Assembly: GCA_965637545.1 (NCBI GenBank)
Contig: OZ281495.1
Span: forward strand, 3,720,001 to 3,784,000
Origin: Phallusia mammillata
Lineage: Eukaryota
Length of the DNA stretch: 64,000 bases
Direction of reading: 5' to 3'
Below the pieces are notes generated by a model. That model saw only the letters and a list, made by a program, of their open reading frames with translations. It was not told where the DNA came from and ran no database searches. Both the position numbers and the translations under genes were made by a program. Shown here one piece after another: positions 4,498 through 56,934 of the stretch. Within the stretch, counting starts at the first letter, position 1. Each line of letters begins with the position of its first letter.

Positions 4498-4649
4498 TTT
4501 GTGAATGTTTATTTCAGACTAGAGAGCATGCTAAGTGTGGTTCATGAAACGCTATTGTTATGACCTTGCTTTACTTTGAACTAACAAATATCCAGACGAT
4601 ATAATTATAAACCGTTTTAACATCTGCTTCTTAGAAATTCGAAATCTAT

Positions 4650-26700: not shown

Positions 26701-27959
26701 TGTTTTAAACTAAACAATTTGTCATGTGTAATTTGAGCCGTCTTCACCAATATTAAAAAAAAACAGTTTAATCTAGGATAATTTAATAAAATAATGCATA
26801 TCGAAATGTTAGTAACGGGTAATTTGAAAATAAAAGTCTACTAGCAATTTTAGTTTGTTTACTAAAGGCTAAAGATATGTGTTAATGCACAAATAGCCTC
26901 TGCATTTAGACGAGTCTCGCCACGTCACATAGCTACAATAAATCTGGTGGGTTGGGGTAGAACGCTACTGACGCGTGACGGGTAACCAGCGTGGGCCCCA
27001 GTATCGTCTCACAACGATAAAAACGCGATTATTTACATGGCGTAAGTGGTTGTTTGAATCTGAGTGATTCTGATGTCAATGTTGTCGCTGTGTGCTGGCT
27101 GCTGCAAACACAACTCAAAACATTTATGAATCGATGATCTTTAAACCCAAACCTAATTTGTTTGTTCTATATGGAAACGCGTTTTGCAGGTTATTACTTT
27201 TTTTGCGTATCGGTAATCTTTGTGATTATTATTTTTTTGTGACAACAACTACATTGCGTTGCCAAGCAACAAATTATAACCGGTTGAAAAGTCTAAACGT
27301 TGCCGATATTTTATGGGTTGCATTGTATGGAACGTAATTTGTTCACGTGTATTTTCGCGAGGCAAACAAAGTATAGAACATCATGATAAGTTTTCACGGA
27401 AAGCACAGGACACAGCTGCAAAAGCCAAACGTGATTGTAAAACAATAGTAAACAGAAGGAAACCTAGATAAAAACGCAGCAGCTGTACCCGGTAAGAAGA
27501 AAGTGGAACTTTTGTTGTTTTTCGCAAATTGAGATGATAGCTTTACCAACATGCTGAACTGTTGCTTGTGTAACTAATGTGGCCTTATTTTGTACCAGCG
27601 GTATCCGATGAAAGCAAAGGCCATCAGATTAGATTCACTGGGCTAACTACAAATCGATTTACCGATCTTTTTACAGGAATGCTAATTTTTCTGGCGCTTG
27701 TAAAACTATTAACCCTTCTACTTTGCTTATGTTATTTTATGAAAAGGGTAAGTCTGTTGTGTATTTAAACCTTTAGCCGTTTCCTCGTGGGATGTTTGAA
27801 CATGTAGCGAAGTGCTTATTCGAGGTACATCTTAATAGAATAACACAATGTACGAATACGCCGCGTAGAATCAAAGAAAGAAGGCAATCTGTCCGGTTCG
27901 CTGTAGTCTGCAAGAGCACGAAAATCGTAGTGAGAGAGTCCGCTACATTCCCGTTGCCC

Positions 27960-28110
27960 TGAGCATCCAGGCAAAGAAATTTGTTCTCTGTCGGTCCAGG
28001 AGATCGTTTACCCTCAATTGGAACAGTTGAACAGATTTCTTCGAGTTGTTCTTTCCTCAAAACGTGTCCCTGGAATTTCAGTTGGCGCTTGGCAAGGTTC
28101 CATATCATCT
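27960..28110 (-). mobile_element. LINE (RTE-like) RT C-terminal fragment
   Basis: KRQLKFQGHVLRKEQLEEICSTVPIEGKRSPG matches the typical RTE/CR1-type C-terminal pattern (RQLKFLGHVLR...IEGKR.RG). Confidence 0.65.
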
Positions 28111-28249
28111 CTCGTTTTTAACCGACTTGGTGTAGGCAAAAGTCCAACTCCAGGTCCGTGCGCCTCTAGCAAGCTACCCACCCCTGTCATGCACGACTTC
28201 AGCATCTCAACGTCGACATTGTTGGAACGCTTGTTCCTTCGCAGGGTAA

Positions 28250-28690
28250 CAGATACCTCCTCCTTGGTCGACCGTTTTACTCGTTGGTCAGAAGCAATTC
28301 CTATGCTTGATGCCACCTCCATAACGTGTGCACGCGCATTTGCTTTCCATTGGGTATCTCGTTTCGGGGTTCGTTCTGAAATATCATCAGATCGCGGCCC
28401 TCAGTTTAACCCCGATCTATGGACGTTTTTCACCCAGTTTCTTGGAATTCAACTGTACCGCACAACCTCTTTCCACCCTCTAGCTAATGGCCTGGCGGAC
28501 GCTTTCATCGTCACATAAAAAATGCGCTTGTGGCACGTCTAGTGGGCCCTAACTCGGACGAAGAGCTACCATGGGTTATGCTTGGAATCCGCACAGCTTC
28601 AAAAGAAGACCTGCAGGCTTCAACGGCCGAACTTGTTTACGTCTCTGCCATCACCGTTCCAGGCAATTTTGTTTCGCCCAGAATACCAGC
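28250..28690 (+). mobile_element. Ty3/gypsy-type integrase core fragment (frameshifted)
   Basis: VDRFTRWSEAIP...HWVSRFG...ISSDRGPQF...TTSFHPLANGL, continuing in another frame as LPWVMLGIRTASKEDLQASTAELVY. Confidence 0.9.
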
Positions 28691-31488: not shown

Positions 31489-33876
31489 CGGACTGCTGCT
31501 GTCTTCTGGAAGTAGGAATTTCCCCTTGTCGTGACTGCACATGCTCTTGTTCGCCTTCTGTTGGTTCGGTTGATTGTTTCTTATTGACACCCCGTGTGGG
31601 GGGCACTAAAACACAATGGTTTACAATAAGATAAAGATTTTAAAATTCCAAGTAAACCAACTAGACAAAAACGATGTTTCGAAATACTGTCCTGTTTTCC
31701 AGTGACGTTATTTCAGTTCGCGCTAGACAAATAGTTTATCAACCTAACTGGTAGTGGTAGGTATTTGACATCTATTAACCAGTTTGAAGTATAACTCAAC
31801 AATTTGTTTACCCGTTTCTTACAAATCATTTTATACTCATGGTCTGTGATCTATTTCTGTTGCATGATTTCCCTTATTAATACAAGATTTTCATCACTTG
31901 GTTTGTCATTTTACCATAAAAACTCCTAGACCGCGTTGAAAAGAAGTGAAGAGAAACGCGTTGACCTTCTCTGACTTGCGGTTGCTGGTCCAAATCCATT
32001 TGTTTCAAAGTTGTCAAAACTTGAGTAAGTAGCCTGGTTGTTTGTTGCTTGTCGAGAAGCGTTTTTAATTCTTCTTTTATTTTAAACATCGTGGGGCGTT
32101 TTGTTGGATCTTGATCCCAACATCGCTTCATCAGTAGTAGGAGTTGCTCTGCGATTTCTTTGTCTTCACCGACCAAAGTTTGCATCCAATCCTGTATTTC
32201 TTGACAGTCTGGTCTTTTACCTTTCTTGATTTTCTCCAATAACTCCCTTCGCTCTTCTTCTGCCAGATTTGGATAGGGAGCTTTACGATTAAGAAGGTAG
32301 TGAATTAGCATACCAAATGCATAAACGTCTTGCTCTTTTCTCGGTTCTATAGCGAGATCCTTTAGTTTTTCAGGAGCGGTGTAATAGGGAGTGTATTGGG
32401 GCCTTTCTTTTTTGGTTTGTGCCAAAGGACTCACAGGTGCAGAAATACTATAAGTTGCCAACTCGGCCCCGCCAAAATCGATTATTTTGGAATGAAGCTC
32501 TTTAGTAAGCATGATGTTTTCAGGCTTTAGGTCTTGATGGATTAAACGTTTGTCAGGCAAATTGTGACAGAAAGCCATTGCTGATGCTATTTCATATGAA
32601 ATGCGAAGGCGCACAGCAAGACCCAGTTCTTTTGACGTATCCAGAAGCAGCTCTCTAAGGTTACCCCCTTTGTAATATTCCATCACAATTCCCATTGCAA
32701 AAGACCATTGGACGAAGCCGAAAATTCGAACGACGTTTTCATGATCTGCTTTCATCAAGTGTTCCATTTCTTCTTTAACTCTAAGGTAATGAGTTTTATA
32801 TTACGCTGGATGTTTATATGCTATGCTCTCTTTCCCCAAAAGTAAATGTTGCTTCTCATACGCTGCGAGGTAACGAGCAGGTTGATCATTTTAGGTACAG
32901 CGTCGTTTTTTTTCATACATCATACAATCATTTCATACAACAATTAATCGACAAGTTAGTTAAAAACCACAATTGGCAAACTGGTTGCATTAGCTATTTC
33001 TCACTCTTTTGTGTGAACGGTTACGTCGTGATTTTTTACAAATTTCTGTGATCACACAAAATCAAAGATGTATTAATATAGAAATCGTCCTGATTCACGG
33101 TTCCTTAACTTCAGACGATTCCGTTAAAATATTTTGACATATCTTAGCTGACTATTTCACCATACTTAAATCGGTCTGTGTATGTATTTCTTTTTTACTA
33201 AATCAATAATGACTGATGATGCTATATTATAAGGGCGAAATCGGTATTTGCAGTGTTAGAAATACACGGACTGATTTGAGTTTGCTAAAATTGTCCGCTA
33301 AGAAATGACAAAGCAAAATCACTTTTAAAAGACCCTCACTAACAGTTGTAATTTATGTACATCACTGTATGCGACCTAAAAACTTACGTTTTTGTGGCTC
33401 GAGCCCTTTCCTGTTTTCCACCCGCGACCTCAAAGACTTTTATGGCGACTTCTTTCTTTAGACCCTCGTGATATCCAATTAGAACATCTCCAAAGCTTCC
33501 CGAACCGGCCACGAATTCGTCAAGGTTACATGTGATGTCACCACAATCCAATTCGCGTAACTGTTTTAGCAACATGACAATGTAAATAATCACAAATCTT
33601 TTTACATTTTCTTTATGACTTGTTACGAAACAGAGGTCACTAAAATGTTGGCTAAAACAACTTTGCTACTAACACCGCGGAAATCGACCTGGAACTGCCA
33701 AATGGTATTAGCGGTTTTATTCACTATTATACCCGCATTCTCTATTTTTTTTATATGTTAATTAAGTTTTAAACCGTACTTCATCAAACCGTACTGTATG
33801 TTACATTTTCTTAAAACCATAACCGGTGTTAAACTATTTTTAAATATAATTTACTTACTTCGTTGGTTGCAGCCAT
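31489..33876 (-). CDS. Kinase 1: non-RD TKL/RIPK-like Ser/Thr kinase plus linker exon
   Basis: Exons 33876-33859 (MAATNE), 33560-33388 (GSGSFG, VAIK), 32780-31915 (HQDLKPEN, DFG, APE, RCW...RPT) and 31605-31489 (117-nt phase-1 linker). Phases are compatible throughout. Confidence 0.92.
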
Positions 33877-34222: not shown

Positions 34223-37200
34223 CTTCTTGACAAACAAAAGCGACGCCCACAAAACACTGTTTCTGTCGTGTCAGACAAAACGAAAGAATGGAAAGATAAC
34301 AGATACAAGATTTAACCACAGTATTTCCTGCAGGGTGCGCAAATGGCAGTCCAAACAGATTATTTGCGCTAGTCCAACCAGATCTGATTCACAAGCTAAC
34401 TGAAAAACACTTGCAACAGCTAATTGAAAACGAGATTTTACGGTCAGCAACGTGTAAGTCAACAACCAGAATTTTTTCAGGAACTCTAATCGGTATCGAA
34501 CTATAAGGCCAAGAATAGGCAAAACAAAGCTTTGCAACAATAAATGTTGTAGGTTGGGGTATAACGCCACTGAGGTGTGACGGGTAACCAACGTGGGAAG
34601 TAAAGTATCGTCACAACGATAGAAACGCGACTATTTACATTGCGCAAGTGTTTGCATCAACTTGAGTGATTCTGCTTTTGGGTTGTGCTCTGTGTGCTGG
34701 CTGCTGCAAACAAAAGGAATTTCAAACTGTTCTGGATCGGTGATTCTCAACCACGACTCTTACTTTTTAGTTTGACACATTATCATTTTTACTCATTAAT
34801 TTGTAATAATTGTCCACAGTAACAACTATATTTCGTTGCCAAGCAACATATCGATCAGCAGACAAATTGTTTTTTCGCGAAGCATGTATAACGCAGTTGT
34901 CACCTGACTGTGTTTGTGGAAATCCTTCTGCCATAAAATTTGTCGTTTTAAAGATATTAAAATTTTAATTTAGAGTGTTTCACAATTCTAAAAACCTTCG
35001 TTACTTGTAATCAGTTTCTTTAGTAATCACAGAATATACAATTACTAGTTGCGCACAATAAAGAGTTTATGAAATATGCCTGATGGCAACACCGCTGTAT
35101 GTATTCTGAGATACTTTTATCCATAAACACTTTCGACATTGTTTCCTTATTAATGAGATATTACGCACCTCAAAAGCATCACCGCTCCACTACTTATTTG
35201 ATATTTGAGCTATCTTTAGCACATGTGGCTAGTGAACTCAACATGCTAAACCAAAACACCATCTTATGTAGCACAACCTATTACTTAACAAATAGTAATT
35301 AATTTTCTTTCGGATATAAATGTTTCAATGACATCGTCAAATTTATCGCCTCCAACACTCCATTGAACACCTAATTTACTTTTTATTACATCTATTTCTA
35401 TTGCGCATGTGCAGTTGCATGAACAAAAGTCGGACCGACAACACGACTAGTATGTCTGAAATGCGCCTGATGTGCATCAGCTGAAACGAGAAAAGGTGTT
35501 TTTCACAAACTCACCGAGACCGGCGCGTTCTTAGTTGTCACTAGACCGTACAATGTAGGGGCTGAAGACAAAACGTTTCCCAGTAAATTAAACGACAAAA
35601 GCACAAAAAAAACGCCCATATCAAACGAATGAGCTTGCGCTAAAACTTAACCTTGAATCTTAAGTGTTTTGCGAAACGCTGTTATGACTACTCTATGCTG
35701 TGTTGCTGAAAAATGGAAAGTGTTTAGTGATAAAATCAGCAATTGTTTTAAAATGTTTGAAAACACGTTTAAACAGTCATGTAAAATATTTCTTATTCCA
35801 GAGTGTGATCCGTAGCATTTACCAACCTTTCCACGTTCGTTTATCAGGCTCTGCTACGTAACGTATCTCAAGCAAACAGGGTTTGTAACGTGTAAATAAA
35901 AAACAAAAGTTTACCGACAATTTTTGATCAAAAGGTTAAAAACAGATGTGAAAACATAAATAATGTTTCATTCGAGTCTCGCCACGTCACTTTGCAACAA
36001 TAAAGCTGATGGGTTGGGGTAGAACGCCACTGAGGCGTGACGGGTAACCAAGTTTGGGGCTCAAGTATCATCACAACGATCGAAACTCCATTGTTCACAC
36101 GGCGAACTTGTTTGTATGAATCTGAGTGATTCTGTGGTGCTGGCTGCTGCAAATGCAAACACAACTCAACATTTGTGAATCGGTGATGATTATATCCAAA
36201 CCTCAATTATTCATTTCGCGGAAACGCGTTCTGCAGGTTATTACATTTTTGCATATTGGTAATCTTTGTCATTATCATTTGCCTGCAACAACAACTACAT
36301 TTCGTTGCCATGAAACATACCAATGAGTAGAAAAAAACTAACGTTGCTGATGTTTTGTGGGTCGTATTGTATTGTTCACAGGTACATTAGCAAGGCAAAC
36401 GAAGTATAAGATATTATAGAAAGTATGAGATATCTTTTCCAGCAAGCTGGACTGTTTTTTTTGTGTAATTCGTGTGTCAAATACATCCCCAAGCTTTTTC
36501 TTGGATAGTTTTTTTCGTCCCAATAAAAATACCCACCCTTCTGCTTGGTTGATGTTTTTGTGGGAAGGAAAGTCTATTGTGTATGTGAAACTATCAAACG
36601 ATAGCAACAAGAAATGCAAAAAATACCAAAAACTCCCGTACACTGTTGAATGTTCAGTCCAACTTCGTGACTTTACGCGTTCACTCATGGGATGTTTTCA
36701 TATTGCAAAAATTGCAAAATAGTAAAATAAATAAAAATATCTTGCAAAACTAAAAAATAGTTAAAAAGCAATCATATATGCTCAAGGTACAACTTGTGTT
36801 GAGAGGTAATGAAAATTTCCCTGTTGCAAGTTTGTAGCCACAACCCATCGTATTTGTTGAATGGTTAATTCTTTATTCACACAAACAATTGTGATGTCAC
36901 AATGTTACAATATGGAGAAATGCAAATATGTTTTGTTTGTGTGCTAGCTGCTAGGACTATGATTATTCGATCTGTTATGCACCTAACAAAACCTGACTGC
37001 TAATTTTCATACTTTTTAAGTTTCTAAGCGAACAAGGAAGATTTGGATTGTCCACTTGTTGGAATCTATTTTTTCTAAATTCCATTTCAAGTAAAGACTT
37101 TTGGCTGAGGTTTGTTCTTTAACAGTTATATTATGCTGATAATAGATGATATTTTATATCTTGTGCTAAGCCTATTCTTTCTAAATGACATTTTACATTG

Positions 37201-39780
37201 ATATAACTTTTTTGGGGCTTTCTGCATTTAAATTTGGACCATTGTGGGTTGAATATGAGTTTGCGTACTTAATGTATTATTTCTTCTCTTAAATAGGGCC
37301 AACAACAGTGTCACTTAGTGATGTAACAGTCCAGATCATTGATTACATGACAATGCCCCAATCACCAATGAGCAGAGAAAAAGCAAAAACTGGCCAAACA
37401 AACTATCATTGAATGAGAAAAAGATCCCAAATGACACGTTTATAACTATTTATGCATACAATTTTAGGGTAAACTGAAGTAGTCTTTTTGTGTTTAGTTT
37501 TTGGAATTTTAGCATCGATATTGTGATACTTTATTATTAAGCCTATCCTTTCTAAATGACACTTTTACTTAGTTTGATTTCGCTGAAGTTTTCTGCATTC
37601 AGTTTTTTACCATAGCGGGTCCGGACCCCCCCCCCTTTTCAAAAAGTTATGCGTAAATTAAATAGGCCAAAATCGTTCCGTTTACCACTGCGTGATAACA
37701 GGGAGTCGTTATCTCAAAGACGTGAGCCTTCAATCTCTTGTATTCGCTTGTTATCTAATCGCCAATTGTGACGTAACAAGGGTTTAATAAGGAGGTTTAT
37801 GCGCTAATAATCGGAAAGTTACGTTCCCGCTAGGACGCTGATAGCAGTTTCTTGCTAAGTGGTAACTGCACTAAGTGCAACATATCAAACTGTTTTTGCA
37901 TTTGAACAATGTAAAAGTGTTAAAAACGTGTAATGTTGTGTTGCTTTGATCCGCCAAACACGTAATAGTTTGTCAAAAACATTAGATCGATGTAAATCGA
38001 GTTATGTTATTAGGGTAATTTGTTACTTGCCAGGCACAATTTATGCCTTCTGCAGTTACCACCTTTAGTGCATTCGTGACTTTGCGCAACTTAACAGTAG
38101 GATTACCGCTTCAGCAAGAGATTTAGTTCTTTGGAAATTGGACCCTGTTTTTTAAGCAACGATTTTGATTACCTGACAGTCACGTGTAGCGGTTACAACA
38201 CTATTGTGCAATGTTTATGAAAACGATTGCATGTTATTTCGCAATAACGTTTCACACCACGAAATGGAAATGTTTACCCTCATTTCTGCATAGACTAATG
38301 TTTATATTTCCGTTTCTATGGTAGTCATAAGTTATTTTCAGCCATTTTTCGGGTTCCAGAAAGATCTAACAGTAAACATAGTGTTTATTCCCTTATGACA
38401 CATATTTCCGTCGGTATTTGCAATGTTTCCGCAGTTGTGATTCGTATTAGAACGCGTCGTTTCCACCCTGTGAAAAAGCATATGGTGTTCACCAAAAGGC
38501 GCTATGGCACTATAAATTACATGGCTACCTTAAAATAAATAATATAAGTAATATGAGAAAAAGAATTCGTACACCGGCTTATGTTTCGCATTGTTATATA
38601 AGCGTGGACTTTGATGTTTGCGGGGGGCTATTTTCGGCCTTCTATTCGTCGTTCTATTTGGGTTCTATTTGTGGGTTCTATTTGTTCCTGCTATTTCCAC
38701 CGGGAAAGCGGCTATTTTGGGGCTTCTATTGTTATCCCATGTGGATGTGTAGCTGATTTGAACGTTCGCCTTTGACGTTATTCAAGAATACAAAGAAAGA
38801 AGAGACATATGTGTGGCTGTTAATCAGCCAGCTGTTATTGAGATGCAAAGATCAGACTCACCAAACAATTTGCAATGAACATCATAGTTCACACCGTAGC
38901 GGTCCTTCACAGGCCGCCATCTAGGCAGCAGCACCTACAAAGTGGTGCCCACGAGTTACTACACACCTTCCGAGCTCGCTTCCAGCGCAGGCAGATGTCG
39001 CTTCAAATTGGTACCTTACGAGCAAGGTTCGGACAGCACGTTCAAAGTGGTGCCCCAAACGGTTCGAACAAGTCGTCATTTGGACAAGGGTTACTGACAG
39101 ATTGCCCTGACGCTCGACCGAACTTACCAGAGACTTTTCGAGCACAACCAGACATTTTAGTTATGTGCAACGCCACCGACATCCCATTGGAATCAGAAAC
39201 AAAAGATGAGGAACAACTCGACTACCAAGATCACGGAATTAACATTCACGCGTTTGCGCCGATGGAGACGTGTTTCCTTTCTTAAGTAAGTGCGTGTGAA
39301 ATCTGCACTTGACTATTTTCTATATTGTGAAATCTATATTTTATTCGCTAAGTAACACTTTATAAGATAAATCAGCTGTGTATACTTACATGTTTAGTTG
39401 TGTGTATGCATTACTAATTTAGTAAATTAAAAATTAATATAGCCTAAGTAAATATTTTGCTAGTGTCAAACTGTAAACGTGTTCTTCGATGTGTCTCACC
39501 GTCAATTTATGTTTCACGTTTCATGTCAACGGTTTTGTCATGCCGAAAACGTTTTTATTTCACTACTAACGCTGCATGATATGTATTGACTCCCTGGTTT
39601 GAGCTGTTTAATAAGATTACACATTTTCCACACACAAATTTCACATGTAAACAACGAACCTGTCAAAAACAAGTGAGCTCAGTCACGCTGGGGACAATTG
39701 CCCAAACCCAAGAAAACAAGCATCCTAGCCGAAACACGACGTGTTTCTACGCCATATTTTGTCTGCATGGTGCATACCAC

Positions 39781-39995
39781 TTCGAGCAACAAGCTCCAAC
39801 TATTTTCAAGTCTGCAAAAAGATATTTCGAGCAACAAGCTCCAACTATTTTCAAGTCTACAAAAAGACATTTCGAGCAACATGCTCCAACTATTTACAAT
39901 TCTACGAATTATGAGCTAAGAGCTCCAACTACTTACAAGTCTACAAAAAGACATTTCGAGCAACATGCTCCAACTATTTACAAGTCTACAAACGA
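39781..39995 (+). repeat. 45-bp minisatellite (about 5 units) inside the LTR element
   Basis: Consensus ttcgagcaaca(a/t)gctccaactattt(t/a)caagtctacaaaaagacat. Reads FEQ(Q/H)APTI(F/Y)KSTKRH in the env frame. Confidence 0.95.
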
Positions 39996-40035
39996 TATTT
40001 TTGAGTCCTACATTTACGACTCAGCCTAAACATGA

Positions 40036-40980
40036 AGAAGACAGCTGTCAGACATCTTATACTTTCAATGCCAATCTACTCAAATAACGGCGTTACTGGC
40101 GGGGTCCAGTGCACACATTTCCCCAAGCCAGATATTATCCTACTTGAAGGGGAAACCGACAGCAGCGATGACGCACGGCGACATGCTCTTAGAAACCGCT
40201 TGTACCACATCAAAAATGCGTTTGTTGCGAAGTCTGCGAATAAAGAATAGCAATTACTTTGCTACAAGGCCTCTTTTCGTAAAAGTTCATACTGGCCAGG
40301 TGAACAACGATGAAAAGACCTACCAACTTTATGACCAGAGTAATGTTTTCCCAGACCTAGTTTACAAGGAAACATTTCGGCCCAACCGAATGTTCACTTT
40401 CAAAGTTCATAATACTTATTACTTATTCGTCAATTATACTCTTGCAAGAGTCGAAACCAATATCCAGCTACTTTCTCCTATTATCAAGATGATAAATGAA
40501 TCTTTTCAATCTTATGATTTCGTTGAAGCGGCCCAGCTTCTCAAATATATACCTAGTGAAAATCGCGCGTTATCGGACGTTCTAGACGTCCTCTCAAGCA
40601 CTCAACTAAACAACGAACGAATGAATTTCTTCTTCGATTCACAAACTAACCTTTCCACAGAAGGGGGAATTGATGACAAGGTTCTGCCGCAAAATCTTCT
40701 CAAGTCAGCTTTCATCACCCTTTTATCTTCTGTGACCAGTCCTGCTGCAAATGCATTCCTCTCCTTCCTCGTTATCCAAGCTTTGTTCTGGGGAATAGCC
40801 TTGTCCCTGTTGACATTAAAGCATCTTTTTCAACGTATTCAACCAATAGCAAGACCAAAAATCAACCAGGCAGTTGCAGAATTACAACGCCGCTGGAATT
40901 TACGTCATCAACAACAAAACAACGATGACGACACGAATGGACAGTTTCAGGAAGCGATTAACACAGAACCAGAAGCCTGA
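40036..40980 (+). CDS. env: Env-like class III viral fusion glycoprotein, herpesvirus gB-like C-terminal half
   Basis: Open frame from 40036: ...ILYFQCQSTQITALLAGSSAHISPSQILSYLKGKPTAAMTHGDMLLETAC...RSLRI...ATRPLF...GQVNND...RMFTFKVHNTYYLFVNY. Then a hydrophobic membrane-proximal/TM segment (AFLSFLVIQALFWGIALSLLTL) and a charged tail. Motif order parallels gB domains III-V (recalled from memory, not searched). Two stops at 40027-40035 separate it from the upstream ORF in the same frame. Confidence 0.7.
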   Translation, partial: RRQLSDILYFQCQSTQITALLAGSSAHISPSQILSYLKGKPTAAMTHGDMLLETACTTSKMRLLRSLRIKNSNYFATRPLFVKVHTGQVNNDEKTYQLYDQSNVFPDLVYKETFRPNRMFTFKVHNTYYLFVNYTLARVETNIQLLSPIIKMINESFQSYDFVEAAQLLKYIPSENRALSDVLDVLSSTQLNNERMNFFFDSQTNLSTEGGIDDKVLPQNLLKSAFITLLSSVTSPAANAFLSFLVIQALFWGIALSLLTLKHLFQRIQPIARPKINQAVAELQRRWNLRHQQQNNDDDTNGQFQEAINTEPEA

Positions 40981-41488
40981 AATACTGTTCCCAGACTAGT
41001 TGCTGAGCGAACAGCATATGTTACACTATACTATATTAAACATTTCACACACTCAGCTAAGCCTGAACGTAATATTACTCTAGCCGTTTGGCAGATCATA
41101 CCACAACACATTAACTTTAACGTTTCACGTTTGTCATTCTGCTAGAATAGTCAACCAAATTTTGCTTAGGGAAACCAATATATATATCTAATCCGTGAAT
41201 ATTACTAACCTTGTTTCTGCATGACAATTTCTTTTTGCATATATAAGTATTTCTTTGTTTTCGCCTTTCTCATTCAAGTGCAGAAACCCTTATTGTGTCT
41301 CCACTACAAAAATATATAATCAATGTTTTGTAAATAACGTTAAAAACTCAAAATTCGAAACCTGTGGAGAATCCAATAGCACACATTACTTTGTCATATG
41401 AATTTGCATTACATTATTCCGCCCGTTCCTTTTTCACATGAATGTAAAGTAATATATTTATACAAGTATCGCATATACTTATAAAACT

Positions 41489-41494
41489 AAAAAA

Positions 41495-41549
<55 letters not shown>
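41489..41549. repeat. Poly(A) run followed by (TA)n microsatellite
   Basis: About 24 A followed by about 18 TA units, between the env-like ORF and the PPT. Confidence 0.97.
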
Positions 41550-41551
<2 letters not shown>

Positions 41552-42897
41552 TAGCTATCAAACCGCATTATAAATCGATAAAACATTCTTGTGTGCAATT
41601 TTGTCAACTTATGTATCGCCAGTCTATACTTACAGATTATATTCTCTGTTTCCACCCTTGTTTTGACGACGTTTATTGTTTTCCTTACAATATTTATTCT
41701 AAGAGCCGAAGAGTCATACCCTTATTGACAAGATATATAATTGTAATGTTCATTTTCCGTCTTTAATTGTGCATGTTTTTCCAACGTATATATCCCCACG
41801 TGTCATCACCTACCGCCATCTATTGACCAATCTCTCTTGTCGCGTGTCGCTAACGACCATTAATATTGATAAAATGTGTTTTTCATTCAAACACATTGTG
41901 CACCCTTTTTGGGGGGGAGCTTTTTGTAGCGGTTACAACACTATTGTGCAATGTTTATGAAAACGATTGCATGTTATTTCGCAATAACGTTTCACACCAC
42001 GAAATGGAAATGTTTACCCTCATTTCTGCATAGACTAATGTTTATATTTCCGTTTCTATAGTAGTCATAAGTTATTTTCAGCCATTTTTCGGGTTCCAGA
42101 AAGATCTAACAGTAAACATAGTGTTTATTCCCTTATGACACATATTTCCGTCGGTATTTGCAATGTTTCCGCAGTTGTGATTCGTATTAGAACGCGTCGT
42201 TTCCACCCTGTGAAAAAGCATATGGTGTTCACCAAAAGGCGCTATGGCACTATAAATTACATGGCTACCTTAAAATAAATAATATAAGTAATATGAGAAA
42301 AAGAATTCGTACACCGGCTTATGTTTCGCATTGTTATATAAGCGTGGACTTTGATGTTTGCGGGGGGCTATTTTCGGCCTTCTATTCGTCGTTCTATTTG
42401 GGTTCTATTTGTGGGTTCTATTTGTTCCTGCTATTTCCACCGGGAAAGCGGCTATTTTGGGGCTTCTATTGTTATCCCATGTGGATGTGTAGCTGATTTG
42501 AACGTTCGCCTTTGACGTTATTCAAGAATACAAAGAAAGAAGAGACATATGTGTGGCTGTTAATCAGCCAGCTGTTATTGAGATGCAAAGATCAGACTCA
42601 CCAAACAATTTGCAATGAACATCATAGTTTACATTGTAGCCGCCTTTAACAAGTCGCCATCGAGGCAGGTCGGGCTACACACGCTTATTTTGCAGTTGCA
42701 GTTGGGCTGAGTAAGCTGGATAGCAGCGGCGAAATCAGAAAACTACAAAGCTTTCGCTAAAATTACCTGTTCTTCCTGTCAATTAGATGGGTAGAGAAAC
42801 CGCTAATTTTGGAAAAAGTGCTTTGCCGCATAACGCGTCGTTTTGAACGACGTGTGACGTCATAATGACGTCATTGGGGATTTTCCCAAAAAAAATT

Positions 42898-42935
42898 GTT
42901 GGACCCCCCCTTTAAAAATTTCTGGATACGCCCCT
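42898..42935 (-). mobile_element. Terminus of a GC-rich MITE-like element that hosted the LTR insertion
   Basis: Reverse complement is caggggcgtatccagaaatttttaaagggggggtcc. A related gggtccggaccccccc motif lies at 37617-37634, at the other edge of the foreign block. Confidence 0.5.
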
Positions 42936-45900
42936 GGTTCAGGTTATGTGGTTCTGGGAAGTTTGTGTTTATAGTGACTTAATTTGACATACATAATTAC
43001 AAATACATTGGCCAGAAGAGCTCTATAAACTTGACATAATTAGTTTGTTATGACATTAATTTGTGTCACTGATGTTTGGCAAAGACCATTTTGTCTACCT
43101 CTTGTTTATTTGTTACATTTTTGTGCATAATAGTTTATTATGGGACTCATTCTGATCTTGATTATTTGTGTCATTTTTAACTTAAAGGTGTTTCAATTTT
43201 AATTCTCAGTATGCGCATGGAATTACTTAAATGCTTTATGTGATGGAGCTTTAAACGTTTACTAAACAACTTATATTGTGATGTAATTAAATTTTTCTTA
43301 CAGTCCTACATTTCTGAACAACTAGTGGGAGAAATCACTGAAGTGGAACGGTACTTGATAAATGTGACGAAGGACAAATTTTGCAGCCAACAACCGACGG
43401 GAAATCCCCGACTGAAACGAAATCTTGAATCAATAGCGCCCACTGGCGGATATGTTAACGCGCTTTGACGTGCCACTGAATTCACCACCCATGAAAGTAC
43501 GTCACATCGTTAGATTCGAAAAAGGAAAAAGGTTTGACGGTTTGAAGGTCTGTATTTTACGATTACAAAAACACTTGTCGGTTTTACGCCACTATTTAAA
43601 CCTGATAACCCAGGGGTGTCCAACTCGTACACAGTGCTGTGCCAATTTCTGTGTTCCACTCTGTACAAACGTTCGTTTTATTTTGTAGTCCCTTTAGAGC
43701 ATTTCCGAATAAATGTATAAAATAAAGCTTGACATAAATATTGCAACATAATTTCCTCCATGCAAAGTGATGCCGCAACAACATGTAGGATTGTATTCAC
43801 CTATTTCGTAGAATAACCACCATTTGTTGCAACACAGAGAAAATTAACAAATCATGGTTGTCGACAAACATTCACCCTTTGTTACCTGTAATAGAAGCGA
43901 GAAATATTGCTCGATAGAGGTGACTCTCATACATTTCACACCATTTTGCAATTTACAAGTCGCGCCATCAAAAATAAGACGACAGAAAGATCACAGGCTT
44001 TCGGTTTTTATACTATTTGGCCCTCGCGCATTATTACCAAATTCATACAACTTCTTGTTAACAAATTTAGTGACCTCTGGTTTATACTACTGCTTCACAT
44101 ACTAAGATGCTTCACATACAGAATTGAATGTGGTTTGTCGTACTTGTGGCATTTTTTTAATTGTGGCAATATTATACCTGACATTGACTGTGGACACCCC
44201 CGAGTTAACATATTGTCTCGTACGACCAACCTGAACTGTCTTAAGATATCAAGTCACAAATATTTAACGTTCAGTACACGGAATGACTTCACTGAGTACC
44301 TAGAAACCCTCTTCTTTGGGCAACTGACAGTGCATCGCGCCACTAAGCGACGTGTTGTCCATGTGCAACGATTTGAAAACTTAGCGTTGTAGTTCATAAA
44401 TATGACGTAACAATGTCCATCTTCACAGAGACGAAATCGCCTTCCATAAGATGTTTTTTATTTCAGATCCGCCATTAATATTTGTCACTTAGTCAATTTT
44501 TGACCATCGGTTGCTTCGATGGTCAAATATGCTTTTTTGCTTATCTGACTTAAACCTAAAGACATTTATTTTTCAACATGTTTCCGAGATGCGTGATATT
44601 TATTTCGATGATTGTTTTTACAGACAGATGCACGTGCTTTGTGACATGGGAACAAGTTTAACCTGGCAAAGACGAAAACACTTCGTGGACAAAAAGTTGT
44701 GTAAATTGATGAAAAGTTTTTCCTATTGTGACGAGTTTGACTCAGCCCATGGATTGTATATCACATTTTTGGGAATCTTGTTTAAAAGCATAGTTTTCAC
44801 GTTAACACGTCACATGTTAATGTCTAATACTCAAATATTTTTATCCACTAGGGGGTGCACCAGAGTTATGATGTGTGATATTGTGCTTGCTGCATTCGAC
44901 CGGGATGAAATGTCAAAATTAAAACCGTCTGCAGTGATTTGGTTGTGGTTCCCCTTGTATCCAAGCTATAGTTTTCCCCGTTTCTGCAACAAAATCTGTA
45001 CCTTTTGCACTTTCAATGCTGATTAAGTTTTGTGATTTTCAAAAATCTTTGAAGGACCAAATACTTGTGGCTCTCTTCAAATTGGTTTGAAACACCGATT
45101 TGTGGAGGCTAAAATTTTTGCATTTTTAACTTGGGTAGCAAGCTCTACAAGAAAATACTTCATTATCAACACAATACTACAAATACATGAGTATCTTCTT
45201 GAAATTTGTCGCCGGACAACGTACACCGCTTATTTAGTCGATGGCTAGTCACGTTTTAATGTGATAAATAACCACCGCCAGTCTGAGTGGTTCTGCGATT
45301 TATGTGTTTGCCGTGGTGCGTAACAACTGTTGCTTTCGGATAATGGCAAAGCAAAACTTCTAGTGCAGTGTTTCCAAAACGTTTTCTACTCGCGTAACTC
45401 TTGAAGATATCGCTTAGTTTTCGCGTTTCACTTTTCCAAATATAGATTACACTGTAGCAGCCATCATCATGATAGTACTGTTTGTTGCGTCATAAACGTT
45501 TCAAAGGCCTGTAAACGTGATCATGGCAAGAATGCGCAAATACACTACTTAATTTTTTCATTATACGATATTTCGATATTTTTGCCAACTATAGTAAGCT
45601 TATGTGCCACATGAAAAGCCTTTGTGTACCACAGTTAAGAAACCACACTCTACTAGTAGCTATGCACAGCGACATGTTGTAATTGTAAGGTGGTTTTGTC
45701 GGGGCAGCCAATTATAAAATAGAATAACGTTATGACACCAACACGCCTGTTACTGCGAAACGTTATGACGTCACGCCTTATTGAGATCGTGCATCTGTCA
45801 CGGTTGTTGCACAAGCGGTCACGTGTTTATTGAAAGAGATGGACGTGACAACTGATTCTAATTTTATTTCGTTGTCGTTGATCCATTTATTAGTTGATAA

Positions 45901-48509: not shown

Positions 48510-49236
48510 ATCTAAAGTAACTTACATCTTTTCTTTGTTTTCACTTAATCCCTTATTTCCCCTTAATGCTGTTTTTTATTTGCCTTATTTTTCTTTGTCC
48601 TAGTGGCACGCTTTTTTCACGCACTGTATTTTCCTCGACGCATTTTCCGCATCGTTAATTTGCGCTCCCGGGTGTGCCGGGAAACCTTGTGATATTGTGC
48701 GAGCCGGTGATTGGCCAACGGCTTGCAAACCTAGTTCCGTTTTGCACGTGTTGATAAAAAACGAGGCAGTCTTCTGGTGGGCGTCTACTGTACGGTTGTT
48801 TTCTTGTGTCGTTGTTTTTATGTGCTGTGATAGTTGACAGGTAAAGAGACCTGGCTTGTTGACGTTGGTGTGACGTTGTTTATGCTATAGCTTATAATAT
48901 AATAAACTGTGAGACGCCCCTTTAGCAAAACCAGTGTTAGGTAGATCCGGCTTTTGTGGTGAGCCGTCATTGCAGGGTTCTGGGCCGCTTACAGAATTGG
49001 GGAGACAGTCTCGGGGAATAGATCAGATTGGCTGGGCGTTTGGGACTTATTTGGCAAAGGTAATCCCACCCCCGAGATCGCTAGACCCAATTCCGGGCTG
49101 TCAAAACAATTGGGTAACCAATTGGCGAGCACGCCAGGACCCTGCCACCACGACCCACTGGTTTCGGTAGGAAGACTGTTTTTTTATTGTATTTTATTAG
49201 GTTTTTACATTTTATTCCATTTTTATTATTTTTATC

Positions 49237-50682
49237 ATGTTTTTTGACCTCATGATGCAACCTCCAACACTGAGGCCTGGAGACGATCTAACCCAGTATT
49301 TTATCGTCTTTGAGTCCTACTGCTCCTGCGTTAATGCCTCTGATCAAGTAAAGCGGCATTTGTTGCTTTCGGCCATAGATAATGACCTAAAATGGGCACT
49401 GCAAGACAAGGACTGTAACTTGGATGAAGTCGAGTACGAAGTGTTGAAGGAACGCGCTTTGCGCCACAGGGACAGTGGGCAACACGGTGAGCACCGCAGG
49501 GATGAACTGATTGGACGCGTGCAACTGCCCGGTGAATCCAGTCGCGAGTTTGTTTACGCACTCCGCGCTTTACGAGATATCGCATACCGCAATGGTTCCG
49601 ATGCGGCGTTGAGGAACGAGATGTTGTATGTGACTTTGTTGCGAGGTTTGCACGACCGTCGATTGGCCAACTCAATTCCATCTCTCATCAAATACTCGCG
49701 CGATTTCGCGGGCGCGTCTCAAATAGTTATTGATCATACCAGCTCTCCTGTTATTGAAGTAGCCGCGGTTGAATCAAATACTCCGGATATGGAGAAGATT
49801 CTTAAAAAGCTCGAAGCTATGGAAATCCGGACCCTGCAAAGGACCGACGAACTGACAATGACCATTTGCGCCATGGAAGCAGAAATATCAACGCTGAAGA
49901 GGACGAACGAACAATTACGGTACAGTCCAGTACATTCGGGCGAGCGCAGATGTTTCGAATGCAACAGACCCGGTCACTTTAAACGTGAATGTCCATTTCT
50001 AGGTACGACCGGCGCAAAGGCGCGTGGCCCCAAGGGGCAAAGATCAATGAATTCTTGCATTTCTAGACACGCGGACCTTACGCGAAGTAAACGACAGAAA
50101 ACGACACCATCTCGGGCCTGGAAGCAACAGCTTCAGCCAGTCGACGTAAACAACACCGACAACTCCCGTTCGTCTTCGGCCCCGGCTCCCGCACGATTTG
50201 TGAGTTTACTGGTAAACGACAAATATGCATGCACTCTGGTAGATACCTGTTCCAGTGCTACTATAACTAGCTCAAGAAAATTCCAGCAAGTAGGTCTTGT
50301 ATCGGGAAGTAACAGACTACCATTAACCGCTAGATTAATGGGAGCTAATGGAGCCGAACTGTCGGTCGAATGTAGGGTAAACCTAATGATTAATGTCGGT
50401 TCTCGTCTCGCAGAAACAGATGTTTACGTCGTAAAGGATCTAAAGTACGACGTCATACTAGGTTTGGACTTCTTACAACGTCACCAATGTTATCATTCCA
50501 ATACATTATCCGCTGGTGAAGGAAAGGTGCCTTTGCTCAGGTCACCCATGCCATCCCTGAGCGCTGCTGATGTTTTCCTTATGGAGGATATCGAAGTTTC
50601 CCTTTTACCGAGGTACGTGCGTCTTGTCGGATTTGTTACGACCGGCCTTTTGACCCAACTAGCTCGTTGCCCGTGTTTTTAG
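49237..50682 (+). CDS. gag: Gag (CCHC zinc knuckle) plus aspartic protease of the gypsy element
   Basis: CFECNRPGHFKREC knuckle; protease motif LVDTCSSAT (DTG degenerate); DVILGLDFL. Confidence 0.9.
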   Translation: MFFDLMMQPPTLRPGDDLTQYFIVFESYCSCVNASDQVKRHLLLSAIDNDLKWALQDKDCNLDEVEYEVLKERALRHRDSGQHGEHRRDELIGRVQLPGESSREFVYALRALRDIAYRNGSDAALRNEMLYVTLLRGLHDRRLANSIPSLIKYSRDFAGASQIVIDHTSSPVIEVAAVESNTPDMEKILKKLEAMEIRTLQRTDELTMTICAMEAEISTLKRTNEQLRYSPVHSGERRCFECNRPGHFKRECPFLGTTGAKARGPKGQRSMNSCISRHADLTRSKRQKTTPSRAWKQQLQPVDVNNTDNSRSSSAPAPARFVSLLVNDKYACTLVDTCSSATITSSRKFQQVGLVSGSNRLPLTARLMGANGAELSVECRVNLMINVGSRLAETDVYVVKDLKYDVILGLDFLQRHQCYHSNTLSAGEGKVPLLRSPMPSLSAADVFLMEDIEVSLLPRYVRLVGFVTTGLLTQLARCPCF

Positions 50683-52975
50683 AAAGATTGTCTGGGTTTA
50701 CCGAAAAGTATGGCCTGATGACAGCGGCAAGTTTAGGTACAGCCGCAGGAGACAGCACTACAGTGCTCCTGGCAAACCTTGGGGACCAAACGATAAGTTT
50801 ACCTAGTGGATTAAGAGTAGCGCACGCCCTTCCGGTGTCTGTCTTTGGCGATATTAATTGCTACCTGCCTGAAACGTATGTGGTCGTTGAGAGACGCGAC
50901 GATGTGTGTAACCACCCTGATTGTTTTGGTTCGCAGCTTGAAGTGTGTTTTGTGTCATCTGCACCTGTAGTAGCAAATGACCAACTTCACTGCATATTAG
51001 AACAAGTTAATATCGGTGTAAATTTGTCAGATAAGCAACGGACCGAGCTGGACCAGCTGTTGTGAGAACACAGTGATGCGTTTGCCGCTTCGAAAAAAAC
51101 TCTCGGTCGAACTGAAGTCGCGCGTCATCACATTGACACTGGAGAGCACCAACCTGTTCGGCAACCTTCTCGAAGGATGCCCCACCACAACAAAGAAAAA
51201 GTCGAGGAGATACTTAGGGAAATGAAGAGCCAAGGTTTGATACGGCCGTCGAAATCTCCCTGGTGTAGCCCAATCGTGTTGGTAAGAAAGAGATCAGGAG
51301 AGACTCTATTTTGTGTAGACTACCGTAAACTCAATGAACTAACAAAAAAGAATAGCTACCCCCATCCCGCGCATAGACGATAGTCTTGACCAAATGTCAA
51401 AATCAGTCTATTTTTCTACCCTAGATTTAAAATCCGGGTATTGGCAAGTTACTGAAGATTCAGAATCACGTGAAAAAACTGCTTTTACGAGCCACGTCGG
51501 GTTATTTGAGTTCAATGTGATGCCTATGGGCTTGTGCAATGCTGCCGCAACCTTTCAGCGCTTGATGCACCTGGTGCTTAATGGAATTGAATGGCGTGGT
51601 GCACTTGCATATTTAGACGACATAATCGTCTATTCCAGAACGTTCGAAGAACATATACATAGGCTTTCTGATGTTTTGGGACGCATTAAATCCGCCGGGC
51701 TGACGCTAAAGCCGTCCAAGTGTTCACTCTTTACAGGTGGTAGTTGATTATCTAGGTCACGTTGTGTCAAAAGAAGGAATTCGCTGCGATCCATGTAAAA
51801 TACAGGCAGTGTCACAATGGCCCGTACCACGGGACGTTAAAGAGGTCCGGCATTTTTTAGGGTTAACTTCCTATTATTATTTATTTCGGCACGAGAAGTG
51901 TCAGCAGGCGTTTTCACTTCTAAAGGAGCATCTGACGACTTCTTCAATCTTGCGATATCCTGACTTCAGCAAACCTTTTATTATTGACACGGACGCCTCG
52001 GATACAGCTGTAGGATGTGTGCTCTCACAAGAGACTGACGGTAAGGAGTCTGTAGTCGCGTATGGCAGTCGAACCCTTAATCGCGCTGAACGAAACTATT
52101 CGACGACCCGTAAAGAATTACTCGCTGTAGTGTTCGCAACCAAGCTATATCGTTGCTACCTGCTGGGCAAAAAGTTTCTACTCCGTACTGACCATGCTTC
52201 ATTAAGGTGACTATAGAGGTCCAGGGGACTGTATGGTCAGTGCGCCCGGTGGGTCGAACACTTGTCGTCTTACAATTTTGTCATTTCTCACAGCCAAGGT
52301 GATAAGCACCGCAATGCAGATGCTTTGTCGCGACTAAACGTGGAGGAAGACTGTTTCCCTTACAAACTGGTCCAAAGTGCTCCGGATCACACAACCGAAG
52401 AGGGCAACGTCGTCGATTTTCGTGCGTCAATCGGGTACAACTGTGACGAACTACAAGAGGAGCAGGCATCAGACGACGATTTGATGGAGGTGATCGACTG
52501 GCTCAAACGAGAACAATCGTCGATGGGATGAGGCTCTCCCCGCAGTCGTTGCAGCTTACAACGCAAGCGCACATGAAAGCACCGGTTTTGCACCACATAC
52601 CCTGCTTACCGGACGCCCTCTCCGCCTCCCTGCCGACCTGTCTGGACCCGACCATACGGTGCTCCTATGAGGTAGAAGTCGACCGAGTGAGGGATTGCCT
52701 ATTACTCGCCGAGGAAGTTGTCCGAGAGACTCTTTCGGTGCAGCGACAAAGAATGGCGGAAAGGTACAACAAGCGACAGTACGGCCAGTCGCATGAGGTG
52801 GGAAAGTATATTTTACTTTTTACTTACAAATCCGCCAATCCCACAGGGCAAATGTAAGAAGCTGCAACCCTCATATAAGGGACCATATCGCGTAGTAGAA
52901 ACCCAAGGTCCGGTAAATTACGTGATAGAAGATAGAGACGGAAATCGACATACAGTACATTATAACCGAATATAG
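50667..52975 (+). pseudogene. pol: Frameshifted pol: RT, RNase H, integrase C-terminus
   Basis: SPWCSPIVLV/CVDYRKLN, LDLKSGYWQV, YLDDII, DTDASDTAVG, TDHASL, then the GPY/F motif LQPSYKGPYRV. Multiple stops and frameshifts; integrase DDE core not visible. Confidence 0.92.
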
Positions 52976-54780
52976 GCAACTACGGACCGGTTTCATCAAT
53001 GCAGCATTAGCGAGGAAGACGAACAGGATAAGGAGACGAGCCCTGTACCGAACAAGTTTTACCATGTCTATTGTCCAGGTGCAACGCAAACATCGTCATG
53101 TGCCAACGGGGCGTTGGATAACATGCCAGAGGTATCTATTGAGAACAAGGCGGAATCGCTCGAAGGCCGCACACGTGATTGGCCGTAAGAATTTCCACCG
53201 GTGACAGAAGATAAGAGATGATGTTAGGCCAACACGCACGCGAAAACAAACAAGGTTTTATCCGGAATCCGAGTAGTCTAACAGGACTAGGACAAATTCT
53301 GGGATGGGGGAATGTAGCAAAAATATTTCACGTGTCCGCCGCTGCGCATTTTCTTGTCGATTTGTTTCAAACAACACGTTTCTTTCATCTATTTATTTAT
53401 TTGGCTTTATGTTATTCGTGTTCACTTATGTTCACGTTTCACCTATTTGTTTTATATGTTTCACTTATTTTCTCATTTAAATGTATTTCTTACATGTTCT
53501 AAAGTCACTTACATCTTTTCTTTGTTTTCACTTAATCCCTTATTTCCACTTAATGCTGTTTTTCATTTGCCTTATTTTTCTTTGTCCCAGTGGCACGCTT
53601 TTTTCCACGCACTGTATTTTCCTGGCCGCATTTCCGCATCGTTGATTAGCGCTCCCGGATGTGCCGGGAAACCTTGTGATATTGTGCGAGCCGGTTGATT
53701 GGTCAACGACCCGCGAGCTGTGTTCGATTTTGTACGTGGTGTAAAAGACGAGGCAGTCTTCTCTTGGGCGTCTCGCGAACGGTTGTTGTAGTGCCTTGCT
53801 TTTTTGTTTATGTGTCGTGGTTGTTTTATGTGCAGAGGTTTTGTGTACTGGAGTTGTAGTGAACAGTCCGTAGTATTGAAATAATATATAATATAACAAA
53901 CTGTGAGACGCTCTTTTAGCAGAACCAGTGTTAGGTAGATCTGGTTTTCGTGGTGAGCCGTCATTGCAGGGTTCTGGACCGTTTACAGAATTGGGGAGAC
54001 AATCTCGGGGGATAGATCAGATTGGCAGGGCTTTTGGGACTTATTTGGAAAAGATAATACCCCCACCCGAAATCGTTAGACCCAATTCCGGGCTGTCAAA
54101 ACAATTCGGTAACACAGCTTTCTAGTTTAGTTTGGGTTTTGAGTTTTGACTTTGGTGGTTAGTGACAGCAATCCCGTGTTTTATTGTGAAACTGTTTTAC
54201 TGATTTTAATTATTTGAGCGTGTTTGTTTTAACATTCATTTTTACATCGATTTAGATTTCCAGGAACTGATGATGCCACATTGGCGAAATATATATTCCT
54301 TTATTTGAACCGACTGATTCTGTTTTATCAAGGATTGTCCATTGGTTTTACTGTTTCAAACTTTAAAAGCCAACTTTTCCATGATGTACCTAGTTCTGCC
54401 AATGCAATGCTGTCCAAATTGTTTAATTTAAAAAGGACAAATTGAATTTGAATTTGATGATATAAACTGGACTAAAGTAGACTAAAATCTTTGATTTTAA
54501 CCATCTGAAATAAGAATAAACAGGATGATCGACGATCAAAATATAACTTTACACGCTAAAATGTAAACAATGCGAAATGAATGGAAATAATGTTCACTAA
54601 ATGATCTCCAAAAAATGTGGAGTTCATAATTTATGTCAACCTTTTAAATGAGCGAATTTATTTTTACATTTGAGCAAAAAAATCATCGCTAAAATAAAAA
54701 TTTTGCACAACGCTGAAAAATCAAACGAAAAGTTTATTTACAACGAACATTTTTTGTGATTTAACAATAAGCAATTTTAA

Positions 54781-55541
54781 TCACTTGTTCATATTTTCTA
54801 TGTTGTTTTGCAAACCCATCTCACTTCTTGCAATCTTTTTTTTTCTTTTTTCCTCAGTTAAGTCCTCGGCTGATTTGTAAACTTCGATTGCTTTCGTGAA
54901 ATATTCGATTGCTTCTTTGAATCGTGAAGTTTCCTCGCAAACAACACCAAGATTGTTAAACAAGGTACCATAGACTTCATATTTCGAGCTTTTATTCCCC
55001 AAGTTTGTTTCCATTAGTTCAATTCCAAGTTTTATTGTTGTTTCCATCGATGCCAAATCCCCGATGTAATATTGACTCAGTTCAATGTAATTCAAACACC
55101 AAACCTTCCCTAATAATCGAATTTCTTCGTTTATTTGAAGGTCACAGATTTGCTGAATCATATCACGCATTAGTGGGATCACATGATCGCTCACGATTTC
55201 TCTGTTTCTCGACTTTGAAGATGAATCAGAATTTTCCATTAAAAGTTCGATTGTTTCCTGAATTTCCTCCGCACACTCAACTACACTTTCCGCTGCAGCG
55301 ATGTCGGGATTTTTTCTCACATAGAAATCTGCTGCAATGCTAAGGAGTAAAATGGTTTCCAAATTCTTGCCGTCATCTCTTAATTTTGTGGCTGTTTCCT
55401 CCAAGTCTTCCGCAGTGACCCCTGGTTGACTTTCGAATGACTTTGAAATCTGCTGTTTTATGGTTTTTGCTTCCTCATACTTTTTTGTTTTTAATAATTC
55501 AACATAATTTAGGATTTGTTGATTGAAGTGATCACTTTCAC
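54781..55541 (-). CDS. TPR-like domain terminal exon (kinase-2 gene model)
   Basis: 253-codon exon with phase-1 acceptor tgcttttag|GT GAA AGT; TPR motif GTLFNNLGVVCEETSRFKEAIEYFTKAIEVY. Confidence 0.9.
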
Positions 55542-55781
55542 CTAAAAGCAAAAAAAGTTGTTATTTGCAAAAACTGGAGAACGTAAAACAGGTTTTGTGT
55601 TGTTAATAGAAACGGAAAACATATGTCGTTTTACTTTAACAAAAACGTCCCAATGTGATTTTTCAATGAACACGGATGGTTTTTAATAAAACAACACGAT
55701 TTACGCACATGGTCGCATCCAGCGCGGACTTTTTGTGTCAAACCTCATGCTAAGAATGCTGATAAAATCAATTCAATTAAC

Positions 55782-56774: not shown

Positions 56775-56800
56775 CTGAACATTAAAACAGTTTATTAAAA

Positions 56801-56896
56801 AAGGATGCTGAATGATCCGGCGCGCTTGACACATATACACACATTAAAAACCTGATCGGGATTCGTCCCCGGAAGTGGCCTAGGTTCGAACCCCGT
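56801..56896 (+). mobile_element. Second tRNA-derived element, in a kinase-2 intron
   Basis: Shares aaaaacctgatcgggattcgtccccgg...ggttcgaaccccgt with 16930-17032; A-box degenerate. Confidence 0.65.
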
Positions 56897-56934
56897 AAAA
56901 GATGATTTAACTAATGTTTTGTTAGTGGTTTTAC

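Follow-up and report, generated by a model that had tools for sequence, protein, structure and literature searches.

How does a long terminal repeat (LTR) element with no recognisable gag or pol genes, and with a reading frame that resembles herpesvirus glycoprotein B (gB), come to be inserted between complete LTRs in an ascidian genome? We addressed this question for an element of Phallusia mammillata found in contig OZ281495.1 of assembly GCA_965637545.1 (positions 3,720,001 to 3,784,000 of the forward strand; this stretch of 64,000 nucleotides is called the window, and positions are counted from its first letter). The element occupies positions 38185-42679, about 4.5 kb, with two 755-bp LTRs around a 2,985-bp interior (Table 1). 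Our analyses indicate that it is probably non-autonomous and mobilised in trans, having been derived by deletion from an ascidian Ty3/gypsy element that carried a herpesvirus gB-type envelope (env) gene.

The signals that mark a complete LTR element, as listed in an earlier note on this DNA, are all present: the 755-bp LTRs, a 4-bp target-site duplication (TSD; CACG), a primer-binding site (PBS)-like sequence (TGGTGCCC) and a polypurine tract (PPT; G7AG). Both LTRs start with TGTAG and finish with CTACA, and no empty site for comparison of the TSD was found within the window. By eye, the first 8 nt of PBS-like site 1 agree with the 3' ends of several tRNAs, and sites 1 and 3 of three such sites agree over 8-9 nt with tRNA 3' ends, for example that of Met-CAU. 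The window holds no tRNA gene, and an Rfam scan of 37500-43500 gave no match. Within the LTR, a U3/R/U5 order is suggested by a TATA-like site (position 413) and the sequence AATACA (position 603). Just past the TATA-like site, each LTR contains short tandem repeats of 13/24 bp together with a direct repeat of 21 bp (38626-38730; 42366-42470).

Replication genes, in contrast, are missing from the interior, as had been proposed for reverse transcriptase (RT), RNase H and integrase. With stops read as X, the six frames contained no Pfam family for gag, protease, RT, RNase H or integrase, the sole relevant match being Glycoprotein_B (E 8.5e-9), and six gag/pol pieces from elsewhere in the window compared with the element gave nothing better than E 0.098. 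Of the features that define an errantivirus, the PBS, the PPT and the flanking LTRs are present, whereas gag, a Ty3/gypsy pol and an intact gB env are absent.

The gB-like frame itself is only the C-terminal half of an env, so that the label "env-only" proposed for the element does not hold as it stood. The frame runs from stop to stop over 314 open codons with its first Met at codon 45, and is broken at its 5' end at about 40036-40038, immediately after two in-frame stops. It comprises the end of the domain III helix from the hinge on, domains IV and V, one lone hydrophobic segment (approximately residues 237-262) and a tail; neither a signal peptide nor domains I-II were found in it. Twelve of 16 aligned env relatives are full-length (573-639 aa), and all 12 have the 290-335 N-terminal residues, with 10-15 cysteines, that are lacking here. 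Upstream of the remnant, none of the frames contained env-like sequence; the best score there (E 0.015) fell on the wrong part of the profile. An AlphaFold model of the frame, built on a 62-sequence alignment (pLDDT 81.9), matches herpesvirus gB (Foldseek E 2.5e-9) and aligns with residues 518-665 of herpes simplex virus (HSV)-1 gB (2gum_A, Z 11.0, root-mean-square deviation 4.4, 141 aligned). Among the 50 structural matches listed, the aligned chain range always begins at residue 473 or later, while the model of a full-length relative, P0129, aligns with gB from residue 111 (2gum_C, Z 14.3, 406 aligned). The remnant thus shares the gB fold of the domain III helix end and domains IV and V, and differs from the herpesvirus protein in its identity of about 20%, in the absence of domains I-II and in its retroelement origin. 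According to PMC7518877, the fusion loops of gB sit in domain I, which is followed by domains II and III, with the domain III hinge at 515-517. With neither a signal peptide nor the fusion-loop domain, the remnant cannot act as a fusogen, and the suggestion that the element carries one is not sustained.

A search of 1.84 billion representatives returned 76 env relatives. A 4-bp TSD is typical of gypsy-type elements, and we infer that the parent belonged to the Ty3/gypsy superfamily because of these env relatives together with the TSD, a BEL/Pao parent being the alternative. Chary and Hayashi (PMC13524379) list, in the part of their paper drawn on here, nine ascidian Ty3/gypsy errantiviruses, all with a gB-type env and 8.2-9.4 kb long where LTRs are given; that part describes intact copies only, does not annotate P. 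mammillata and leaves replication unexplained. By eye, the env relatives belong to this type, and P0129 resembles one of the nine, Amen_errantivirus_2. Like these HSV/gB-type elements (Amen, Atur, Clep), as far as they are described there, the present one is LTR-flanked, has its PBS a few bases from the LTR, a gB-type env in last position and an ascidian host, and its LTRs are of similar size (755 bp against 266-785 bp). It differs in being 4.5 kb long, in having no gag or pol and in keeping half an env. The published elements and the full-length gB-type proteins among the relatives bear out the earlier proposal of a deletion derivative of an infectious-type element.

Evidence that the deletion is shared by a second copy comes from two UniRef proteins of P. 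mammillata, P0121 and P0122, which are 94-96% identical to the env frame. In P0122, env sequence continues upstream of the join, the point at which the remnant begins in the window, and there is no M-K-K start. P0121, the protein with 96% identity, begins M-K-K-T-A-V-R, which is the off-frame reading from the ATG at 40032 (43 of 50 residues, M-K-K included); after a one-base shift it follows the env frame, matching 202 of 207 residues. The P0122 residues at the join could not encode M-K in that reading, and the template of P0121 therefore appears to share the join of the window. On this comparison a second, diverged copy with the same join probably exists, which would make the element one of a non-autonomous family and not one decayed copy; the proposal of mobilisation in trans gains support from this apparent sharing.

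Both proteins end in V-S-A, and the sole V-S-A-stop on the plus strand of the window lies at 41213, in the 3' untranslated region (UTR). This ending, and the internal gap of P0122, would be explained by two GT-AG introns on the antisense strand (Table 1). Both introns have the donor AAG/GTTAGT, a 9-mer that occurs twice in 128 kb (both strands), at these sites only. Random gaps had GT-AG ends on either strand in 1,914 of 200,000 trials; as the proteins allow five placements per gap, the chance per gap really amounts to several per cent, so that antisense splicing is better supported by the identity of the two donors. We infer that P0121 and P0122, whose records we take to be transcript-derived, are wrong-strand translations of spliced antisense RNA from the element family. 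If P0121 stems from antisense-spliced RNA, then the join sits in its DNA template. The antisense forms, spliced or unspliced, contain no ATG-started open reading frame (ORF) of more than 67 aa. An explanation of the join as the end of an antisense intron was rejected, since the P0122 residues ahead of the join do not supply the required AC, and the antisense introns replace an earlier account of the V-S-A ending as read-through of the donor at 39286.

The window and P0121 show seven visible base differences in 150 (four synonymous, one ambiguous, two not), six of them at env third positions, and 5 of 207 in-frame residues differ. Judged by these sequences, the two env backgrounds have diverged under selection, far beyond the divergence of the LTRs (1 in 705). 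All seven differences fall in codons 21-50 (P 0.02), and 20 identical codons past the join followed by differences fit a crossover a short way beyond it. Most simply, then, the join would be old and the insertion young, with recombination among family members. A single copy with a unique breakpoint, which the earlier note had set against a transposing family, is what this indirect evidence leans away from.

A second trace of recombination may lie in the LTRs. Their near identity had been taken to imply a recent insertion, which stands for 705 of 755 bases: bases 1-705 contain one difference, whereas the last 50 (706-755) contain 16, eight transitions and eight transversions, that had been overlooked. 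This clustering (P 1.8e-19) excludes age as the source of the discordance. The two U5 ends are still homologous, their similarity being reached by none of 100,000 shuffles; the last 45 nt of the 3' LTR, which contain a terminal inverted repeat of 7 bp, form a fold more stable than that of shuffled sequences (z -2.7), and RNA folding of the U5 ends revealed no structure in common. In normal reverse transcription, a single U5 is the source for both LTRs. On balance, we favour a discordance that arose during the reverse transcription that made the present copy, with the minus strand begun on a diverged RNA packaged alongside. Discordant LTR signatures left by heterozygous particles have been described before, and strand transfer between unlike RNAs is documented for human immunodeficiency virus type 1, though, in the portion of PMC5651808 relied on here, not the exact U5 pattern seen in this element. 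A somewhat unlikely alternative is that another LTR subfamily donated the tract later by gene conversion, or that the assembly is chimeric: a short, sharp-edged tract suits conversion and the window is full of near-identical duplications, yet the tract stops exactly at the LTR terminus, where reverse transcription begins, CTACA is kept on both LTRs and the TSD is intact.

Downstream of the 5' LTR, the motif CA-AA(G/T)-TGGT(G/A)CC, which combines an LTR end with a PBS, occurs three times in tandem (38938, 39004 and 39043). The pattern was derived from the three sites themselves; two extra matches in the leader were seen in none of 5,000 shuffles, yet the plus strand of the window holds nine matches at two mismatches. 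Module 2 is nearer to the 3' LTR end (5 of 3,000 shuffles) than to the 5' LTR end (49 of 3,000), and the upstream part of module 3 is not significantly U5-like (157 and 1,962 of 3,000 shuffles). These modules may be relics of shifted priming sites.

For the origin of the join, we give an even chance to a one-off short-homology template jump and rather less to splicing of sense RNA. The last bases on its upstream side are AAG, as in the exonic part of the donor consensus, and F-R of P0122 ahead of the retained part corresponds to TTY-AG, a sequence (TTYAG) found at 1 of 943 positions of the env remnant and 179 of 64,000 of the window. A specific version of the deletion-derivative reading, which we put forward more tentatively still, is that the element was born by splicing, that is, that sense RNA spliced after ...ATGAAG to a cryptic mid-env acceptor was packaged via its leader and arose repeatedly from intact copies. 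The AAG on the donor side and TTYAG on the acceptor side match the expected splice remnants, one join on two selectively diverged backgrounds is what recurrent splicing yields, and the consensus donor at 39286 is kept upstream, as in SD' RNA. However, the 5' end of the putative intron is not visible, so that its GT cannot be read, N-D-E-F of P0122 before the acceptor implies a purine-rich stretch and hence a poor acceptor tract, the common AG is equally ordinary microhomology, the pattern was spotted post hoc, and the 20 identical codons past the join favour a single origin with recombination.

Precedents for such an origin are known from vertebrates. In murine leukaemia virus (MLV), the spliced SD' RNA of SDARE forms a heterodimer with full-length RNA, is packaged in that form and then undergoes reverse transcription and integration, and rem-intron-deleted Mtvs and spliced HERV-H (Goodchild 1995, as cited) carry identical precise deletions on different backgrounds, explained by spliced cDNA and recombination (PMC2925334 and PMC11998498, respectively, in the sections used). 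SDARE, as described there, resembles the present element as a defective LTR element with its leader kept, and differs in its canonical env acceptor and proven splice sites, against a putative mid-env acceptor here. The spliced HERV-H and Mtv copies, in that account, share the same internal deletion on differing backgrounds; they are vertebrate retroviruses, and the Mtv deletion is in frame, equals a known intron and leaves gag/pol. Unlike a poly(A)-tailed retrocopy made by a long interspersed nuclear element (LINE), the present element has complete LTRs and a TSD.

Under the deletion-derivative reading, element RNA would be transcribed from the 5' LTR and packaged by the Gag/Pol (and any Env) that an intact relative supplies, before its reverse transcription and integration, with the env remnant as passenger sequence upstream of the 3' UTR and PPT. 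The join would be older than the present insertion and sit on at least two env backgrounds, in a lineage that transposes and recombines with other copies. In the event that made this copy, minus-strand synthesis would have started on a co-packaged diverged RNA and switched template inside U5, so that the partner's U5 end was left on the 3' LTR while the 5' LTR kept the element's own U5 end and PBS.

Several observations weigh against this account. The window contains one copy only, the shared join depends on two residues of one protein (P0121), and the U5 mechanism is drawn from a single copy. The family is absent from the nine ascidian elements as listed in PMC13524379 (compared by eye), and among 4,346 longer-protein candidates, in a weak search, no full-length env of the same family was found. 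The gypsy element nearby in the window (48.5-54.1 kb), considered as a helper, was rejected, its LTR being unrelated (similarity score matched by 114 of 200 shuffles) and its PBS different. The env frame is still open over its 314 codons, and the polarity of the nine amino-acid differences relative to distant relatives is mixed, four favouring the Phallusia state as ancestral and two to three that of the window; neutral decay on the window lineage is therefore not supported. The single copy and the helper not found in the neighbouring gypsy, longer-protein and GTDB searches (the last with 90 pattern matches in GTDB genomes, none confirmed) would equally suit a lone provirus that lost its middle after insertion and belongs to no transposing family. 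We regard this as improbable: P0121 appears to share the join, yet differs at at least 7 bases in 150 as against 1 in 705 for the LTRs, which would call for a recent homogenisation of the LTRs.

The open frame also raises the question of whether the half env is functional. More improbable still than a lone provirus is that selection retains the half env as a membrane-anchored fragment acting on the helper's Env trimer, by interference or modulation. Its 314 codons are open and start directly behind the domain III hinge (HSV 515-517, as given in PMC7518877), codons 45 and 50 encode Met in the window but Ile in P0122, and the one-base shift gives P0121 an in-frame join ATG at nearly that position. 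Nonetheless, the fragment has no signal peptide for entry into the secretory pathway, changes from ATA to ATG are common transitions, chance would allow about nine amino-acid changes without a stop, and the transcripts seen are antisense only. A satellite with a working fusogen is hardly credible: although the frame is open, with a gB fold and a hydrophobic anchor, the signal peptide, domains I-II and fusion loops are all missing, the first Met, at codon 45, stands behind 24 upstream ATGs, and nothing env-like lies upstream in any frame. A broader proposal, which we consider unlikely, holds that splice-associated retroelements have an invertebrate counterpart here, in which intact ascidian gB-errantiviruses repeatedly yield a spliced, packageable satellite RNA able to integrate and spread, that the U5 mismatch records heterodimer packaging with a diverged helper, that the modules are alternative priming or integration ends for different helpers (with LTRs of 755, 821 or 860 bp), and that the half env is perhaps tolerated, or selected as an Env inhibitor.

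All three interior frames claimed previously exist; however, an ATG is lacking from the repeat frame, and the gB-like one extends from stop to stop. The 136-aa ORF is putative as a coding sequence and probably leader. The repeat frame holds a 45-bp tandem array (39781-39992, 4.8 copies); homology to env was not found in it. Its assignment as an env signal peptide or linker, prompted by a CF..IFCLHG stretch that resembled env domain II, was rejected as unsupported, since the stretch alone gave -3.3 bits against a 29-relative profile and there was no match to P0122 (E 8.7). An ATG-started frame through the 45-bp repeats (39767-40037) has 15-residue amphipathic-looking units and one stop, and is a possible gag start. 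The A24 run and (AT)19 in the 3' UTR may be a microsatellite or a captured poly(A) tail.

Table 1 Features of the element and its borders (window positions)
Feature	Position	Strand	Remarks
TSD, left copy (CACG)	38181-38184		
5' LTR, 755 bp	38185-38939	+	
136-aa ORF starting within LTR	38875-39285	+	last 136 of a 147-codon frame; no Pfam match
U5 end of 5' LTR	38890-38939	+	16 of 50 bases unlike 3' LTR
PBS-like site 1, TGGTGCCC	38943-38954	+	begins 3 nt past 5' LTR
Module 2	38956-39020	+	diverged U5-end copy ending CA, plus PBS-like site 2 (TGG 39009)
Module 3	39022-39059	+	CA plus PBS-like site 3 (TGG 39048)
Consensus splice donor GTAAGT, retained	39286-39291	+	one of two GTRAG sites on element sense strand
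149-codon repeat frame without ATG	39580-40029	+	candidate leader repeat, gag start or pol tail
Join of upstream sequence to env remnant	40032-40038	+	ATGAAG/AAG...
C-terminal half of gB-type (class III) env	40036-40980	+	Pfam PF00606, E 1.3e-9, below curated cut-off
Putative antisense GT-AG intron, 417 nt	40234-40650	-	would explain internal gap of P0122
Putative antisense GT-AG intron, 403 nt	40807-41209	-	would explain VSA-stop ending common to P0121 and P0122
A24 run, then (AT)19	41489-41549	+	in 944-bp 3' UTR
PPT, G7AG	41911-41919	+	T run ahead; 5 nt before 3' LTR
3' LTR, 755 bp	41925-42679	+	
TSD, right copy (CACG)	42680-42683		

The element lies in about 0.8 kb of sequence (37621-38184 and 42684-42934) that has no other match in the window and replaces 2032-2611 of a paralogous segment (1-3225). 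It is bordered at either end by GGACCCCCC motifs, and a TGACGTCA palindrome is also present; by resemblance, these features suggest a non-autonomous DNA element. The window also contains recent segmental and tandem duplications of a multi-copy locus (1-2031 and 35590-37620, 98.9%; 4648-9483 and 10811-15676, 94%), in which two exon-like frames tested gave no Pfam match. Duplicated genes include long single-frame protein kinases (31877-32800 and, on the minus strand, 56795-58027) and TPR-repeat genes (20436-21338 and, on the minus strand, 54781-55560), both pairs being ascidian-specific expansions by best hit; the best hit of the window kinase is a P. mammillata protein (41%). The neighbouring Ty3/gypsy-like element (48511-54113) is older and degenerate, with frameshifted gag-protease, RT and RNase H and LTRs that are 83.7% identical, and an isolated integrase-core fragment lies at 27934-28518 (Pfam rve, E 1.7e-4).

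Non-autonomous LTR elements, such as LARD- or TRIM-type elements and internally deleted gypsy copies, have cis signals without coding capacity and depend on helpers. The present element likewise has cis signals and no replication genes, and differs from them in keeping a recognisable class III half env, triple LTR-end/PBS motifs and discordant U5 ends. Ascidian gB-env errantiviruses, non-autonomous LTR derivatives, spliced proviruses and recombination in heterozygous particles are each already known singly. Full-text searches of the literature turned up no account of a non-autonomous derivative of ascidian gB-env elements, nor one of PBS modules in tandem; as subscription journals, Repbase/Dfam and preprint supplements lay outside these searches, absence from print is not established.

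For annotation, the two UniRef "Phallusia proteins", as wrong-strand retroelement translations, call for caution, and both LTR-pair dating and "env-only" calls mislead for this element. The join and the two U5 types provide sequence tags for finding the helper. If the account given here is true, the element would be indirect evidence that the recently described ascidian gB-env retroelements take up two RNAs in packaging, undergo recombination and have parasites that depend on them.

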